In this document: piece after piece, positions 19,413 through 31,309 of the stretch
Position numbering within the stretch: position 1 is the first letter of the stretch
How the letters are laid out: every line of letters starts with the position of its first letter
Assembly: GCA_028715585.1 (NCBI GenBank)
Contig: JAQURN010000001.1
Location: 1 to 31,309, forward strand
Direction: 5' to 3'
From: Actinomycetota bacterium
GTDB taxonomy: Bacteria; Actinomycetota; Geothermincolia; Fen-727; JAQURN01
Length of the DNA stretch: 31,309 bases
Position numbers and translations under genes: made by a program
Notes under the pieces: generated by a model
What the model saw: only the letters and a program-made list of their open reading frames with translations
Database searches by the model: none
What the model was told of the DNA's origin: nothing

Positions 19413-20261
19413 CTATAAAAGTCTCTCTCCACAAAGAGGGGGGCTGGATGAATAAATCTCGTCGATTAAAATCACGCCATATTTTGCCCCAGCGAAACTT
19501 CTCGCCTCTCTAAAATCTCCTTTGATTTGATAACTCACAGCGTCTTGTGTCACGATGCCCAAAGCTATCCTTTTCCCCTCCTCTAGCCTTGCGACTTCGC
19601 TATTGTGTTTCTTTATCCTCAATACGAGTGTTCCGCCCCTCTTCAGGTGAACAGCAAGAGATGGAAATGCCCGCGGAACGCCATCATCGCCCACAAACGC
19701 TATGGCTTTCACACCAAGAAGGCTATTGAATCTCTTTCTCACGGCGGATGGAACGCTAAGATAACTTTTATTCCTCTCTCGGATCAAACTTCCAAAAAGA
19801 TGGGTCGCGAGGAAATCCGATAAGTAGCCAAGATACGAGGCGCCCGCTGGGAGATTTGTTTTTTCGGTGAGGCGTATTATTCCCACGTTGTGGATACCCA
19901 TGTAGGCATTGTATCTAAAGAACTCGATGCTATTTATCTCATCGATAACAGGACCACTATCCACCCATTCCTCCACCTCACCCTCGAAACCAGCAAACTC
20001 GAGCTTTTCAGATACGGCAACACTTGCCAAATGTTTGTCATTAAGAAGGTTCTCTTTCGTCTTCACCATCATGAAATCTCCAAATGCCACCTTCCCGTTA
20101 TCAATTGGCATCTGGCTTATGATGAGCGCGATGTTAGGCTCTCCCTCCGCGGAGACTGTGGCAAGGAATTTAGCCGCTTGGGGCTCTCGATACAAATCGA
20201 GCTCCCGAGGTGAGAGCGTCACGCCTTCTTCACCTTGCAAATCCAGCTTTTTCAAGTTCAA
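19413..20261 (-). CDS. Tandem pyridoxamine-5'-phosphate-oxidase-like (FMN-binding split barrel) protein
   Basis: Two similar halves: AKFLATVSAEGEPNIA...KTKENL and VKAIAFVGDDGVPRAFP...SYQIKGDF. Confidence 0.7.
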   Translation of the reverse strand: MNLKKLDLQGEEGVTLSPRELDLYREPQAAKFLATVSAEGEPNIALIISQMPIDNGKVAFGDFMMVKTKENLLNDKHLASVAVSEKLEFAGFEGEVEEWVDSGPVIDEINSIEFFRYNAYMGIHNVGIIRLTEKTNLPAGASYLGYLSDFLATHLFGSLIRERNKSYLSVPSAVRKRFNSLLGVKAIAFVGDDGVPRAFPSLAVHLKRGGTLVLRIKKHNSEVARLEEGKRIALGIVTQDAVSYQIKGDFREARSFAGAKYGVILIDEIYSSSPPLCGERLL

Positions 20262-20270
20262 ACCCGCGCT

Positions 20271-21236
20271 TTAACTCTTGGTCATTCCAGACCAGTGGAC
20301 ATTTTTTGCCCCGCAAGAAATCGCCTTTCTCGCTAGACTTTCCATCTTTGAGTGCTCGAGAAGAGGCTTTCCCTCCAGCTTCCATTCCATAGAGAGTCGC
20401 TTATACTTCGATGCGCATGTATTGTTGAATGCCAGCAAATCGTATCTCTGGACGTTATCGAGCGAAGAGACAAATCTCAAAATACCTTCGATATTTTCCT
20501 CGGCATCCGTGTAGCCGGGTATTATTGGAGTTCTTATCCACACCGGCTTTCCAAATTCGGAAATGGTTTTTAAATTTTTTGTAACCAGTTCAAGAGGTAT
20601 CCCGGTCCACTCAAGATGCTTTTCTGGGTCAGAAACTTTCACGTCCAACAAAACTATATCAACAAATGGAAGGACTTCCTCTAAAGCCTCCACCTCATAA
20701 CCTCCAGAGGTGTCTAACGCTGTGTGCAATCTGTTCTCTTTGCAAAGGCGAAGGAATTCCTTTACGAAATGGTGTTGAACTAGGGGCTCTCCCCCGGATA
20801 CCGTTATGCCACCCCCAGAATTCTCGTAGAAAGCACTGTCTCTTACTACTTCGCTCAACACTTCCTCGGGAAGATAATATCTACCCACCAGCTCAATCGC
20901 TCCCGTGGGACAAGCTTCCGCGCACTTTCCACAACCATCACATCTTCCTCTGTCTATCAACATACCAGATGGCTCCAGCCGCAAAGCGTCTTGCGCGCAA
21001 ACTCTCACACATTCCAGAGCCGCTATGCACCGCGTTTCAAACCACATTATCTCCTGTTTCTTCTTAAGTCCCTCTGGATTCTGGCACCATGGGCAACGGA
21101 GGGAACACCCTTTCATAAAAACCGTGCTCCTGATTCCAGGGCCATCCTCTATCGAAAACCTCTGGATGTTGAATATGAGCCCTTTTAGAGCGCCTTCAAA
21201 TTCAGAATCCGTGAGATTCTCTGGCGATGATTTCAT
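20271..21236 (-). CDS. Glycyl-radical enzyme activating protein (radical SAM with ferredoxin-like insertion)
   Basis: IFNIQRFSIEDGPGIRSTVFMKGCSLRCPWCQNPE; insertion CDGCGKCAEACPTGA; GGGITVSGGEP; HTALDTSG; IRTPIIPG; overlaps the GRE stop by 35 nt. Confidence 0.95.
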   Translation of the reverse strand: MKSSPENLTDSEFEGALKGLIFNIQRFSIEDGPGIRSTVFMKGCSLRCPWCQNPEGLKKKQEIMWFETRCIAALECVRVCAQDALRLEPSGMLIDRGRCDGCGKCAEACPTGAIELVGRYYLPEEVLSEVVRDSAFYENSGGGITVSGGEPLVQHHFVKEFLRLCKENRLHTALDTSGGYEVEALEEVLPFVDIVLLDVKVSDPEKHLEWTGIPLELVTKNLKTISEFGKPVWIRTPIIPGYTDAEENIEGILRFVSSLDNVQRYDLLAFNNTCASKYKRLSMEWKLEGKPLLEHSKMESLARKAISCGAKNVHWSGMTKS

Positions 21237-23595
21237 CCTGAACTTCTTTCCCTAAAGTAGTGAAGTACGCGTTATACCCCGTTACTCTCACCAAAAGGTT
21301 GGAATACTCGACTGGTTTTCTCTGGGCTTCCTTTAGGGTTTCTGGGTCTATCACGTTTATCTGAAGTGCTGTTCCTCCAACTTCGCCATAAGCCTTGATG
21401 TAGAAAGCGAATTTTTCTATCTTTTCCTCCCCCTTAAGAAGCGAGGGATTGAAAGAAATAGTATGAGAATCCCCACTTGGAGCGGTCTCCAGCCCGAGCT
21501 TTCCGACCGATTTGGCAACAGCGGTGGGTCCATTTCTATCTGTGCCGTTCACGGGACAGACCCCATTGGAAAGGAATGTGCCTCTGTGTCTGCCATCGGG
21601 AGTTGCTGAAGTAAAGGGGGCATACGCAACCCAATAATTCCAGGAGAGATACCCACCGCGATACCTCCTCCCAGTGGGGGTTTGGTGCTTGAAGGCTTCC
21701 TGTGTCCAAAACCTGGAGAGGTATCTCGCTACTTCGTCGGCATAATCATCATCGTTTCCGTATTTTGGGGCTTTGTTTAACAAGAGGCGACGTAGTTTTT
21801 CGTTCCCCTCGAAATTTTCCCTTATGGCACGGGTAAGCTCAGCCATGGATACAGTTTTATCCTCATAGACAAGCTTCTTTATCGCGGCAAGAGAATCGGC
21901 AGCGGTGGCAAAAGCAACCCCTTCCATGGTCACGTAATTGTGCTCGGGTCCAGCATTTGTCACATCCCTACCCGACTCCGCACATCCCCTCACCAGAGCG
22001 GAAAGATAAGGGGTGGGCTCATACTTGCTCCGCAAACCATCCGAGATGTTATAAAGGCTCACCAGCTTTGAGATAAGTGATTTTAGCTGTTCCTCGAACG
22101 CTTCCTTGAAATCATTCCAATCGGCGAAACGCTTTGGGTCGCCAGTGCGTGGTCCAAGCCTCTTCCCGCTTGCGGCATCCTTTCCGTTGAAAAGGGTGAG
22201 CTCGACAGCCTTAGCCAGGTTGATGTTTACATCTACGGTTCCCGACCTATCATTTCCCTGGAGGGTGTTTTCGAGACAGCCAACTGGCGCATAATCCCAG
22301 ACATCCTCCTCAGGTAACCCCTCCCACTTGAGTCCAGCCTCCGACTTTTCGTCGAAGTTCAAGATGAAAGGCGAGCCCTGAGCGGAAGATACCATTCCGG
22401 CAAGGCGCAGAATGAGTTTTGGCGGGGTATTCTTGTGTATGCGCACGTTCGGTTTGGGCTCGAGGAGGTTCATCTCCTCTATGACCTCTAACATAAGCCA
22501 TGTGAGTTCATTCGATACATCTTCACCATTAGGACCATGACCACCCAGAGTTACGAGCTGTCCATAGCCACTGGTTATCCCTCTGGTTCTTCCAACTCGA
22601 TGCATGAAGTCATACGCATAATTTGGCTTTATCCAGAAGCACTCGAGCAACTCCTTTGCCCATTCTCTCGTGAGCTTTCCCTCCTCCAAATCTTTTTTGT
22701 AATAGGGGAACAAATACTGGTCTATCCGACCAAAAGAAAGCCCTGGGCCAGGATAGGACTCCTGGGTCATAACCAGCATGTGCAAAAACCAAAGAGACTG
22801 GAGCGCTTCGTGAAATGTTTCAGCGGGTTTGCCAGGGGTCTTTTCGCAGATTCTTGCTATTTCCCCTAACTCCTGCCTACGCCGTTCATCCGTACAGCTA
22901 GAGGCAAGCTTTTCTGCTTCTTTCGAATATCGCTTAGAAAATGCTTTTGCTCCTTCGCAAGAAATCACCAACGCCTCGAGAAAATCTAGGTGAGACTTAG
23001 AAGCGGCATTTTCTTTCAATCCCTCGAAGTAGGAAATCAGTCCATCAAGCCCAAATCTCAATGCCCTGGGGTAATCTGGAATCAAATGCCCCGGGGTGGC
23101 TCCAGCATTTCCCATCCCAGAGGAGTTGAGCTCGCCCATGAGCTTTATCCACTTTTTCGTAAGCTTTCTCCAATGACGGCTCTCTTTCTTGTTCAGCGAT
23201 CGGGAAAGTACAGCATTGAAATGCCCGCCCACGATGAGCTCTCCATCCAAAATCCTCACGGGAATATAGGTTGAAACGACTTCCCGAAAGAAGATAGCGG
23301 CACGCAGAATGAGTGGTTTGTCCCAGAAATCGCCTGGAAGTTCTACCGTCTTTGCCGCGAGTGGAAGCGTTTCCAAAAAGGCAGGCTGGAATTGGAACAA
23401 TTCCGGTACGACTCCCCATTCGCTGGGAGACCATACGGTATCCCAACCCTTCCCATTCGAAAAGGGAATCAGCTCGTTTCGAAAATACTTGCGGCTCTCG
23501 ATGTCTGCGTACTCCTCGCGGAGCCTCGAGACTCTTTCCGAAAGCTTCTGGGAAGGTCCCCAGATTTCCCTAGCAGCTTGACTACTCTCATTCAT
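21202..23595 (-). CDS. Glycyl radical enzyme (PFL2 / glycerol-dehydratase-like family), substrate unknown; probable start ATG 23595
   Basis: Gly loop LLVRVTGYNAYF; Cys loop YAPVGCLE; ETFHEALQSLWF; SFGRIDQYLFPYY; NKAPKYGNDDDYAD; ATPDGR; LQINV; adjacent activating enzyme. Confidence 0.93.
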   Translation of the reverse strand: MNESSQAAREIWGPSQKLSERVSRLREEYADIESRKYFRNELIPFSNGKGWDTVWSPSEWGVVPELFQFQPAFLETLPLAAKTVELPGDFWDKPLILRAAIFFREVVSTYIPVRILDGELIVGGHFNAVLSRSLNKKESRHWRKLTKKWIKLMGELNSSGMGNAGATPGHLIPDYPRALRFGLDGLISYFEGLKENAASKSHLDFLEALVISCEGAKAFSKRYSKEAEKLASSCTDERRRQELGEIARICEKTPGKPAETFHEALQSLWFLHMLVMTQESYPGPGLSFGRIDQYLFPYYKKDLEEGKLTREWAKELLECFWIKPNYAYDFMHRVGRTRGITSGYGQLVTLGGHGPNGEDVSNELTWLMLEVIEEMNLLEPKPNVRIHKNTPPKLILRLAGMVSSAQGSPFILNFDEKSEAGLKWEGLPEEDVWDYAPVGCLENTLQGNDRSGTVDVNINLAKAVELTLFNGKDAASGKRLGPRTGDPKRFADWNDFKEAFEEQLKSLISKLVSLYNISDGLRSKYEPTPYLSALVRGCAESGRDVTNAGPEHNYVTMEGVAFATAADSLAAIKKLVYEDKTVSMAELTRAIRENFEGNEKLRRLLLNKAPKYGNDDDYADEVARYLSRFWTQEAFKHQTPTGRRYRGGYLSWNYWVAYAPFTSATPDGRHRGTFLSNGVCPVNGTDRNGPTAVAKSVGKLGLETAPSGDSHTISFNPSLLKGEEKIEKFAFYIKAYGEVGGTALQINVIDPETLKEAQRKPVEYSNLLVRVTGYNAYFTTLGKEVQDEIIARESHGF

Positions 23596-23629: not shown

Positions 23630-24889
23630 TCAACTTTGTTCGAGGTTCTTCTCAACCCAAGAGAGCATCGAATCGAGGCGCTCGATAACCTCCAGCGCTT
23701 CCTCCTTTTTTATGATAAGGGGAGGAAGTATCTGGCTTATCGACGTGTCATTGTTAGCGTAAATCGTAAGGATACCGTTCTGGAACCCAGCAAGCGTCAG
23801 CATCGGTCCGCACCACTCGGTTGCCATTTTCAAGCCAATCATAAGCCCTTTTTGTCGAACCTCCACGAGGAGTTCGGGATATTTAGCCTTCAACTCCAAG
23901 AGCCCTTTTTCAAAAAGGCTAGCCATGCTTCTCACATGCTCTAGAAATTCAGGACGCTCGAGTATTTCCACCACCTTGAGAGCAACACGACAGCCAACCT
24001 CTGACCCTCCAAAAGTAGATATATGAATGAAGGGATTTTCATGGAAAAAGCCATCTAGCTCATCGCTATAAACCACGGCTGACATGGGATAAATTCCTCC
24101 AGAGAGCCCTTTCCCGGTAACAATCATGTCTGGAACGACCCCGTAGGTGTCGATTGCCCAATATGCCCCGCATCTCCCAAGCCCGGTTTGCACCTCGTCG
24201 CAAATCATCACCGCGCCTTTTTCCTTTGTAATCCTACGTACCTCCTTAAAATAGTCTTCTGGAGGAATAGCCATCCCTAAAGTGGCGGGAATGGTTTCGA
24301 AAAGAACCGCCGCCGTGTTTTCATTCACAGCCTGTTCCAATTGTGAAACATCCCCAAATTTAACTTTCTTATATCCGGGGACCAACGGCTCGAAGGGTTT
24401 GGAATACAGTTCGTCTCCCGCTGGAAGAGCAAAGCCAGTGTGCCCATGAAATCCGCCGATGGCGGAGACTATCTCCGCCCTTTTCGTGTAACCCCTTGCA
24501 AGCTTGATAGCAATGTCTATTGCCTCACCTCCACCAGCAGCGAAAACAACGCGGTTTACATCCCCTGGACAAATGCCCGCCAGCCTTTCACCAAGTATTG
24601 CTTTTTGCTCGCTCATGAAGTGATGGTTACCGATATCAAGCTCGCCAAGTGCCTCTTTCAGAGTATCGACTATTTCTGGATTGCGGTGTCCGAGGTTGAA
24701 CACGCCCCCGTTGCAGTGACAATTGATAAGTTTCATCTTCTCATCCATGTCATATATGTATATTCCCTCTCTCCTACCAGGGATGAAATCCAACCCTGCC
24801 TTGGTAAAAAAATCCGCCTTCCCGCTCGAGACATATCGCCCAAATTTCTCGATTGCTTCCTTTTTACTCAAACTCCCAATCAAACTCAT
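23630..24889 (-). CDS. Class III aminotransferase-fold PLP enzyme (PatA/ArgD/HpnO-like)
   Basis: GVFNLGHRNP, GGGEAID.AIKLAR, GFHGHT, DEVQTGLGR, GKGLSGG (PLP lysine), STFGG; SD AGGAGG. Confidence 0.93.
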   Translation of the reverse strand: MSLIGSLSKKEAIEKFGRYVSSGKADFFTKAGLDFIPGRREGIYIYDMDEKMKLINCHCNGGVFNLGHRNPEIVDTLKEALGELDIGNHHFMSEQKAILGERLAGICPGDVNRVVFAAGGGEAIDIAIKLARGYTKRAEIVSAIGGFHGHTGFALPAGDELYSKPFEPLVPGYKKVKFGDVSQLEQAVNENTAAVLFETIPATLGMAIPPEDYFKEVRRITKEKGAVMICDEVQTGLGRCGAYWAIDTYGVVPDMIVTGKGLSGGIYPMSAVVYSDELDGFFHENPFIHISTFGGSEVGCRVALKVVEILERPEFLEHVRSMASLFEKGLLELKAKYPELLVEVRQKGLMIGLKMATEWCGPMLTLAGFQNGILTIYANNDTSISQILPPLIIKKEEALEVIERLDSMLSWVEKNLEQS

Positions 24890-24946
24890 CTCTCCTCCTA
24901 AAAATCCTCAAAAGCCACATAGGGGCATCGAAATGCATCCCTCGCA

Positions 24947-25963
24947 TCACACCGTTTTCTTAAACTGCCAATGGCGTTTTACCCTGGGCGGAAGTACATA
25001 TGGATAATCTTTTCTTAGCACTTTGGTTCGAAAGAATCTATCCAGCTTTCTCAAGTCGAGGTACACACTCCATACAGCAGCGTCTTTTCTGTAAAAACTA
25101 TCCACCTCCTTTTGGGAAATCGGAAACACTCCCAATGTTTTCCCCTCTTGTGAAAAGAAATCATTTGCGACCTCGACAAGTTCTCCCACTAGCTCTGACA
25201 TGCCTTCCTTGTGAAAATTGGCAATCATGTCCACGACAAGTCCCCTCAAATCATAGTAATGCCCAACCACATCCTCCAGCACCAGATTGCCAAGAAGTCG
25301 CGCAAGAAGCGGAGGAGAATTTCTCAGGAACAATTCCGTGTTGAGTTGCTCAACACCGTCAATTCTGTAAAGGGGTGTAGAGGTGTCGAAGTATTTCAAC
25401 TGAATATCATCGCCAAGCCCGGGATTCTGCTGGTCGAAACCCATAATCGACCAGTTAGAGACTTGTCCATCTATCGCAATCTGAACATCCGGATTTCTCT
25501 GGTTAAATTCCCAGACTTTCATGAACTCCCCAAGGACTGCGCGCACGAGTTTGGCTATTTCTTCCTTGGCGAGAACATGGATAGCTCTGTGCCCAATGGA
25601 AAGTGGGTCCAGTTTCTCTTGGATGATGTAGAATACCGGTCTCCCAGCGCTAGAAACAAAACCTACTCCCCAGTAACGGGGAAGCTTCAAGCCAGCTTGC
25701 AAAAGCAGGTCGCAATAGGTTTCATAAACCGCCTCATACCTGCGTAGTTCGAATTCGCTTACAAACATTGGCATCCGCTTGAAAGCAAAATCTTTGACTT
25801 CTTCCTTTTGAATCTCCAAGACGGTCCCTATTTCCCCATAGCCAAGAATTTTAGCTGGTATCCCGCTCCTCTCTGGGTGTTTGGGGTCTAAAGAATCCTC
25901 GAACCTCTTTATTAGTTCGATTTTCACAGGGAGATCCGCGACATAGCTTTTCTCATCACCCAT
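24947..25963 (-). CDS. DUF6206-like protein with protein-kinase-like motifs; probable start ATG 25963 rather than 26038
   Basis: FEDSLDP.HPERS.IPAKILGYGEIGTV...AFKRMPMF recalled as DUF6206 (from memory, not searched); GxGxxG, beta3 Lys, DGQVSN and YFD motifs. Confidence 0.65.
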   Translation of the reverse strand: MGDEKSYVADLPVKIELIKRFEDSLDPKHPERSGIPAKILGYGEIGTVLEIQKEEVKDFAFKRMPMFVSEFELRRYEAVYETYCDLLLQAGLKLPRYWGVGFVSSAGRPVFYIIQEKLDPLSIGHRAIHVLAKEEIAKLVRAVLGEFMKVWEFNQRNPDVQIAIDGQVSNWSIMGFDQQNPGLGDDIQLKYFDTSTPLYRIDGVEQLNTELFLRNSPPLLARLLGNLVLEDVVGHYYDLRGLVVDMIANFHKEGMSELVGELVEVANDFFSQEGKTLGVFPISQKEVDSFYRKDAAVWSVYLDLRKLDRFFRTKVLRKDYPYVLPPRVKRHWQFKKTV

Positions 25964-26078
25964 TCTCACCACTCGCAAATCCTCTTTATTTCCAAACGAA
26001 TGGTGTAAGCTTACCTCATTGTGCATTGATTTTTCCAAAGATAAAAGCTCTCAAGAAGGCAAATGGAAGGTAAAAAAA

Positions 26079-27302
26079 CTGAAAGTGGCCGAGCTGGATA
26101 ACTTTTTCGCCTTTGAAAAATGTGACTCTTGTGGGGAATGCCTCCTCCGGTGTCCCGAGTTCGGGAGCAATCTTCCAGGTGCAAAGAAAGCTTTTCAAGA
26201 TCTCCTGGATGGGTGGGAATCATCGGAAATCCTCTCGAGATGCAATTCCTGCATGAGCTGCAATGTTTCCTGCGACAAAGGGGCTAATCCATATGGTTTG
26301 ATACTCTACCGCTGGCATCAAAGAAACGCCTCAAAGGGTTATCCCTTAAGAGCATCTCTGGTAATGCCCCTAGAACCGGAAAACGTATGGCAGAGGGTAC
26401 TAAGGAAACTACCACCCGATGAATGGGCAACATTGGAGGAGTGGAAAAATATCGAGAGAGCATCCATCAGGAACATAGCACTTTTTGCGGGTTGCAATCT
26501 GCAGATATTTCCTTATCTCGCGCATCCTTCAATTGTCGGCGATATCCCTATTTTTGGGAGACCTGATTTGTGCTGTGGAGAGGTCTATTATCGCGTTGGA
26601 GCGCTAGGAAGGGTAGAAAAAATTGCCCAGAGGCTCGTGGAAATATACTCAGAGTTTCCTATAAAGCAACTCGTATTCTACTGCCAGGCTGGCTATAACA
26701 TGCTCAAAAATATCCTCCCGACATATTTCGGAGCTTCTTTCCCATTTCGAATTACATACCTGGGGGATGAGCTATATCAAAAGGTCATGTCCGGAGAGCT
26801 GGATGTAAAGGACAAGCTCGCTGGGCTCAAGGTAACCCTTCATGACCCGTGCCATTCAAAGGTCCTGGGAAGAAATTTCCAAAGCAAACCGAGAGAGATC
26901 CTCGAGCATATGGGGTGCCGTGTCATCGAGATGGAACACAACCGCTCTTACGCGCGTTGCTGTGGCCTTGGAAATGGAGCAGCACGCTTCAATCCCATTG
27001 ATATAACCCTCGGCTGCGCAAAACGGCTTTTAGAAGCCAAGAAAACGGGGGCAGACAGGCTCATCACTTATTGCAACACATGCTTTTTGCTCTTTTCCAT
27101 TGGAAGCGAGCTCACTCCATTTGGAGTCGAGCCATATCACCTGAATGAACTAATCCTCGAGGCTCTTGGAGAAAAATACGAACGCAGAAACCTCGCCAGG
27201 GGGCGCTTGATGCTAAAAGAACTCGCCCTTGGCGGTTTCCCTACGGTCTTGTCTCCCAAACGCTTTCAGCTGGACGATTTCCACTCCCCAGCGCAGCAAT
27301 AA
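26079..27302 (+). CDS. (Fe-S)-binding protein with 4Fe-4S dicluster and two CCG domains (HdrD/GlpC/GlcF-like); start CTG 26079 or GTG 26085
   Basis: CDSCGECLLRCP and CNSCMSCNVSC; FAGC, LCCG, YCQAG; LHDPCH, RCCG, YCNTC. The ORF-track start at 26019 overlaps the divergent gene's extended ORF. Confidence 0.85.
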   Translation: MKVAELDNFFAFEKCDSCGECLLRCPEFGSNLPGAKKAFQDLLDGWESSEILSRCNSCMSCNVSCDKGANPYGLILYRWHQRNASKGYPLRASLVMPLEPENVWQRVLRKLPPDEWATLEEWKNIERASIRNIALFAGCNLQIFPYLAHPSIVGDIPIFGRPDLCCGEVYYRVGALGRVEKIAQRLVEIYSEFPIKQLVFYCQAGYNMLKNILPTYFGASFPFRITYLGDELYQKVMSGELDVKDKLAGLKVTLHDPCHSKVLGRNFQSKPREILEHMGCRVIEMEHNRSYARCCGLGNGAARFNPIDITLGCAKRLLEAKKTGADRLITYCNTCFLLFSIGSELTPFGVEPYHLNELILEALGEKYERRNLARGRLMLKELALGGFPTVLSPKRFQLDDFHSPAQQ

Positions 27303-30950: not shown

Positions 30951-31309
30951 TGGGTTCGAATCCCACGGAAAGTGGGGAAAAAGAAAATGGTGGAGCTGGC
31001 GGAGTACGAACCGTCGCTCGCGGGAAACCGATGAACACTTATCTTTGGGCAGATGCACTACGCCCGCTCGCTCTTCCAGGGGGGACTCGCGTCCCCCCTA
31101 GGACGGTCGCTTACGCGACCTCTACCCCCCTAAGTTAGATTGCTGGGGGGAATACTCCCCCCGCAAGAAAAACAAGCCCCCCTGGGTTCGAATCCCACGG
31201 AAAGTGGGGAAAAAGAAAATGGTGGAGCTGGCGGAGTACGAACCGTCGCTCGCGGGAAACCGATGAACACTTATCTTTGGGCAGATGCACTACGCCCGCT
31301 CGCTCTTCC
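30951..31309. repeat. Direct tandem repeat with 232-bp period: copy 1 at 30951-31182, copy 2 at 31183-31309 (127 bp, truncated by the window end)
   Basis: 30951-31077 is identical by eye to 31183-31309, starting TGGGTTCGAATCCCACGGAAAGTGGGG and ending CGCTCGCTCTTCC. Confidence 0.95.
30988..31012 (-). other. Degenerate tmRNA/tRNA-Ala 3'-end fragment (att-like), repeated at 31220-31244
   Basis: The minus strand reads GGTTCGTACTCCGCCAGCTCCACCA, close to the typical ssrA 3' end GGTTCRAYTCCCGCCAGCTCCACCA. The T-stem pairing is broken. Confidence 0.6.

Follow-up and report, generated by a model that had tools for sequence, protein, structure and literature searches.

A conserved gene pair of a DUF6206 kinase-like protein and a class III PLP enzyme lacking the glutamate switch: a probable kinase and phospho-lyase

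The window (the whole 31,309-nucleotide stretch of DNA analyzed) contains two consecutive minus-strand open reading frames separated by 57 bp. The upstream gene (24947–25963, 338 aa; ATG at 25963, stop codon ending at 24947) encodes a DUF6206 protein with a protein-kinase-like fold, and its start is supported by an 88% identical relative of 334 aa. The downstream gene (23630–24889, 419 aa) encodes a class III-fold PLP enzyme. This arrangement bears out the sequence-only reading of the locus, in which a kinase-like gene lay directly upstream of a class III PLP gene. Within the spacer (24890–24946, minus strand) the PLP gene is preceded by a strong Shine-Dalgarno sequence (AGGAGG), and an imperfect hairpin of small size is present, but nothing resembling a terminator was found. 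A glycyl radical enzyme (GRE) gene with a VGCLEN Cys loop and an RVTGY Gly loop (21202–23595, minus strand) starts 34 bp after the PLP gene, as a neighbor outside the module. On the opposite side is a divergent gene for a CCG-domain Fe-S protein (26019–27302, plus strand), which in relatives is part of the GRE cluster.

The DUF6206 protein was characterized using Pfam, an AlphaFold2 model, VIA fold comparison, and a homolog alignment. It scores 72.7 bits against PF19709 (cut-off 30.4), the sole Pfam family with E ≤0.01, and no match to APH (PF01636) was obtained. A PDB sequence search gave no match, 6ef6 included, an ESM Atlas search returned DUF6206 clusters only, and no paper on DUF6206 was found in the literature. 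The AlphaFold2 model (pLDDT 89.6) displays a protein-kinase-like fold, and its best match is amicoumacin kinase (VIA Z 11.5, 236 residues, rmsd 5.0), followed by the aminopropanol kinase 6ef6 and APH enzymes including APH(2'') (VIA Z 11.0). Z scores for Bud32, RIO, and WaaP are within 1–2 of the APH-type enzymes, the top values being tied to within ∼1, so that the fold comparison leaves these kinase types unseparated, with the small-molecule kinases aligning over more residues. The P-loop (G41-Y-G-E44), K62, the catalytic loop (D165-x4-N170), and the metal-binding D193 can be assigned. Across 88 diverse homologs G43 is invariant, K62 and D193 are each conserved in 88/88, and D165 and N170 each in 87/88. 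The β3 Lys, catalytic D-x4-N, and metal Asp of the protein-kinase-like superfamily are all present along with its fold, and given the modeled fold and these conserved catalytic residues the DUF6206 protein is very probably an active kinase. Conserved basic residues in the C-lobe (K252, R305, and R309) may contribute to a putative substrate pocket, and gene context points to a small molecule as the substrate.

A long DUF6206 paralog with a conserved N-terminal extension of ∼190 aa and no PLP partner occurs elsewhere (L044:7879–9420, L121:4406–5929, L218:6091–7629). Its kinase motifs are degenerate, with N170 and D193 lost in two copies, suggesting a possible pseudokinase. Weak DUF6206 copies in two genomes (G198, G409) might be taken for degraded forms of the gene in the window; this was rejected, as they are members of the N-terminally extended paralog group.

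The downstream gene product was assigned to the class III fold by Pfam (PF00202, 263 bits, cut-off 30.5), and was further analyzed using NCBIfam, structure search, alignment, and phylogeny. Its PLP residues are intact (H148, E198, D231, Q234, K260, T292), and D231, Q234, and K260 are conserved. Both unusual motifs pointed out from the sequence alone were located: ETIPATLG (aa 198–205, nt 24298–24275), which aligns with and replaces the EPIQGEGG of PatA, and LINCHCNGG (aa 54–62, nt 24730–24704). According to PMC4244111, the 2-oxoglutarate half-reaction of PatA depends on the pair E243 and R426 (OAT E235 and R413). The window enzyme has T203 and Q386 in place of this Glu switch and 2-oxo-acid Arg, and the loss of the two residues extends across its clade. 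Among 82 clade sequences, P201 is found in 80, A202 in 81, and T203 in 80. In metagenomic enzymes, Arg at position 386 is present in 0/43 switch-less versus 30/30 Glu-retaining proteins, so that the two losses coincide. K24, N60, H89, H90, and H150 are typical of the clade, K24 and H150 being shared with a Glu-retaining sister group, and K24, H89, and H150 are candidate phosphate-site residues as judged from the alignment.

The top PDB sequence match of the PLP enzyme is PatA (214 bits; 6tor, 120 bits), and the closest solved structures are the PatA, ArgD, and PigE transaminases (Z 52–54). PatA/YgjG aligns with Z 54.5 and an rmsd of 1.8 Å over 418 residues at 29% identity, with a conserved PLP site. 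A predicted PLP-bound homodimer scored 0.96 (best control 0.00; run agreement 98%, pLDDT 95), passing a mark attained by 20/30 solved pairs and 1/23 single chains, and this reflects no more than likeness to solved class III dimers.

The match to PatA, together with the closeness of Bud32 and RIO-type kinases in the fold search, would suit an ordinary putrescine or acetylornithine aminotransferase with a protein kinase next to it that is unrelated or regulatory. We regard this as highly improbable. The enzyme falls under every NCBIfam cut-off, scoring 274.8 versus 612 and 229 versus 658.65 bits with the PatA models, which places it outside the PatA family, and 261 versus 410 bits with the ArgD model. 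Six substrate or switch residues of PatA are all changed (F91 to G61, Q119 to H89, K183 to H150, and L419 to N379, in addition to E243 and R426), and H150 also occupies the position of the substrate Arg (OAT R180). The phylogeny contradicts such an assignment as well, and at other loci small-molecule kinases stand in for the DUF6206 partner, which also counts against this reading.

In the phylogeny the switch-less enzymes form one clade with 100/100 support, which includes the RMM/Aut aminotransferase; its sister group (99/99; L084 type) retains EPIQGEGG and the Arg. Approximately unbiased tests rejected grouping of the DUF6206 partners with PatA (p-AU 5e-7) and with ArgD (p-AU 3e-8), the two placements that the sequence-only reading had named as speaking against it. 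Grouping of the clade with ETNPPL/PHYKPL-type phospho-lyases was also rejected (p-AU 0.0105), the ETNPPL type being represented in this test by two bacterial NF004800 fusion domains (L104 matches 6tor at 358 bits). The Glu- and Arg-retaining sister lineage (L084:5570–7264, L165, L166, L168, L170, L174) adjoins an SCP2 sterol-carrier gene, and is possibly a transaminase for a lipid amine. In other actinobacterial classes (L089–L100) a PatA-like aminotransferase recurs widely in a cassette with cyclase/SRPBCC-like and dehydrogenase-like proteins.

Labels of close homologs suggest that the window comes from an actinobacterium of the class Candidatus Geothermincolia. The PLP enzyme is encoded in 30 of 51 genomes of this class, and all 30 also carry an intact, full-scoring DUF6206 gene (counts from a fuller search, the Pfam first-look genome search having missed several DUF6206 genes). 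The two genes are adjacent in these genomes save where contigs break; a 31st kinase is located at a contig end, and in G323 both genes are fragmentary and side by side. Likewise, the PLP gene adjoins DUF6206 in 22/25 DUF6206 loci, two of the exceptions being contig ends. The pair is also found, in either gene order, in distant actinobacteria, one Leptospiraceae genome, and many metagenomes. This adjacency is far beyond chance, and the DUF6206 kinase and PLP enzyme constitute one module. At two loci (L175, L183) the PLP enzyme lies within one stop-free frame of ∼790–810 codons, which suggests fusion to a downstream domain.

The neighboring C-x-E GRE scores below all NCBIfam cut-offs. One ortholog with 60–73% identity is present in 47/51 Geothermincolia genomes, nearly universal and single-copy in the class, and resides in its own conserved cluster with an activase and a split-barrel flavoprotein (window 21202–23595 and 19413–21236), often joined by CCG, GH51, desaturase, and GGR-like genes. 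This cluster looks like core metabolism. The proposed feeding of the GRE is not supported, and it is improbable that the pair supplies the GRE substrate or shares one pathway with it. The GRE and PLP genes are co-oriented, and elsewhere, in L044, L121, and L118, from three further genomes, a DUF6206-family gene adjoins the CCG gene of this GRE cluster; the AU test did not reject a common origin of those copies with that in the window (p-AU 0.58), and there may be an old positional link between DUF6206 and the GRE cluster. However, these three copies are the long degenerate paralog or a fragment, and the PLP gene is absent from L044 and from 20 further GRE neighborhoods. Seventeen of the 47 GRE-bearing genomes lack the PLP enzyme, some of them 95–100% complete, and the pair adjoins this GRE only in the window and in a near-identical contig (L051). 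A metagenome scan with the GRE gave no match, and none of 80 metagenomic loci contains a GRE. Aldehydes, as the pair would release, are not known as typical substrates of C-x-E GREs, which also counts against the link. In five relatives of one family (L027, L028, L029, L034, L043) the pair lies divergently to another GRE, which is ∼980 aa in length and has a long extension at its N terminus. This arrangement could be taken to favor a connection; adjacency of this kind is cheap, though, because Geothermincolia genomes encode up to 10 GREs.

The gene neighbors of the wider switch-less clade are more informative about the substrate. The locus of the RMM/Aut member (L086/L115) carries an aminopropanol kinase and dehydrogenase, and the kinase at L087 matches 6ef6 at 497 bits. 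Other members adjoin APH kinases (L088, L109), a choline-kinase-like gene (L110), a DAG kinase (L156), or a phosphodiesterase (L107, L108). The partner of one sub-clade, at L083 (L083:7691–9991) and three metagenomic loci, is PPDK-like; at L083, L151, L154, and L196 a PPDK_N and PEP-utilizer protein takes the place of the kinase-fold enzyme. Among 80 metagenomic loci a kinase is nearby for 27/48 switch-less versus 0/31 Glu-retaining enzymes, a contrast that is overstated and indicative only, because the neighbor queries were drawn from clade loci and kin are non-independent; with both flanks at least 1 kb the counts are 13/20 versus 0/16. The repeated swapping of the kinase for unrelated suppliers of phosphate esters is the main argument that the substrate is phosphorylated.

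The kinase linkage would be accounted for equally well by an atypical transaminase, catabolic or biosynthetic, whose substrate is an amine or carbonyl phosphorylated by the kinase and which uses a non-canonical acceptor or donor (aldehyde, pyruvate, or amine). Consistent with this, the nearest solved structures are transaminases, the sister lineage keeps the Glu and Arg, and transamination has been proposed for the Aut enzyme (PMC4207490, PMC6620236), for which no characterized ortholog is described (PMC6620236). We nevertheless consider it rather unlikely, as the clade as a whole has lost the Glu switch together with the Arg that binds the carboxylate. Pyruvate-accepting class III enzymes, as far as we know, retain an Arg near this site, which counts further against it. 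Loss of the Glu/Arg pair required for transamination is the main argument favoring elimination.

A kinase-fold phosphotransferase coupled to a class III PLP enzyme without the Glu switch is likewise found in ethanolamine kinase/ETNPPL, HYKK/PHYKPL, 5g4i, and the NF004800 fusions, and the chemistry proposed for the window pair is the same as that of ETNPPL/PHYKPL. The switch position is Cys in 6tor and Thr in both 5g4i and the window enzyme; none has Glu. In contrast, the C-terminal K-x-K/R of the solved phospho-lyases (KIKPP/KMRPP in 6tor and 5g4i) is Q-I-L in the window enzyme (QILPP), and therefore the phosphate site must be built differently. The window enzyme belongs to a separate lineage by the test above, and its genes are unfused, unlike NF004800. 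The earlier idea of a kinase/phospho-lyase pair survives as the best reading, with two corrections: the PLP enzyme is not of the ETNPPL/PHYKPL lineage, and the kinase is a DUF6206 protein and not a HYKK/APH ortholog.

The closest known system is RMM/AAUM/Aut of Mycobacterium and Rhodococcus. AutA falls in the same clade as the window enzyme (100/100) at ∼40% identity, and both share the ETIPAT, GNHH, and HGHTG motifs and the Glu/Arg loss, whereas position 388 is Lys in AutA and Leu in the window enzyme. AutA is paired with an (S)-1-amino-2-propanol kinase (PDB 6ef6) of the same superfamily as the window kinase, but the latter is DUF6206 rather than APH and has no sequence match to 6ef6. The RMM pathway is proposed to convert aminoacetone to propionyl-CoA (PMC8156839). 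Unlike RMM/Aut, the window locus lacks shell proteins, aminopropanol dehydrogenase, acylating aldehyde dehydrogenase, and an APC permease. Shell genes and genes for aminopropanol kinase, aminopropanol dehydrogenase, and acylating aldehyde dehydrogenase were not found in the window, nor were the aminopropanol kinase and aldehyde dehydrogenase found in the 84% complete genome with the queries used. A phospho-lyase step for the RMM pathway was reportedly proposed by Mallette and Kimber in 2018. As judged from sequence, the window pair would work like HYKK/PHYKPL yet outside that family, as an AutA-clade member with a different kinase family. PbfA, the (R)-1-hydroxy-2-aminoethylphosphonate ammonia-lyase (PMC8154272), is an earlier case in which a supposed class III 'aminotransferase' turned out to be a lyase. 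However, PbfA eliminates water without a kinase, and the window enzyme scores 219 bits against a PbfA cut-off of 525.

It is therefore likely that the pair comprises a kinase and an independently evolved phospho-lyase acting on an amino alcohol, although we infer both activities. The DUF6206 kinase would catalyze ATP-dependent O-phosphorylation of a β-amino alcohol, H2N-CH2-CH(OH)-R. The PLP enzyme would form an aldimine with the substrate amine, and K260 would then take the α proton; elimination of phosphate and hydrolysis of the resulting enamine would yield an aldehyde and ammonium. Such a catabolic two-enzyme module would use ETNPPL/PHYKPL chemistry, arrived at independently from a PatA-like transaminase. 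No assayed activity for any clade member was found in the literature, and two queries did not find an aldehyde dehydrogenase in the 84% complete genome. C69 amidase neighbors at other loci, and one GDPD neighbor, hint at amino alcohols released from amides or lipid headgroups. With the amidase and phosphodiesterase neighbors at those loci in mind, our guess at the substrate is a lipid-headgroup amino alcohol.

It is tempting to extend this further, in a proposal that we put forward tentatively and that may well prove too broad. The switch-less clade could represent a second independently evolved PLP phospho-lyase family whose members have taken on kinases of at least four unrelated types, with DUF6206 a new small-molecule kinase family, and would give anaerobes B12-independent deamination of a common amino alcohol without a known pathway. 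If true, DUF6206 gains a function, the role of the RMM/Aut microcompartment 'aminotransferase' is settled, and many genes annotated as putrescine or acetylornithine aminotransferases need correction.

Away from the pair, the contig end carries a direct repeat of ∼232 bp (window 30951–31309) with tRNA/tmRNA-like 3' ends, which TRF does not report.
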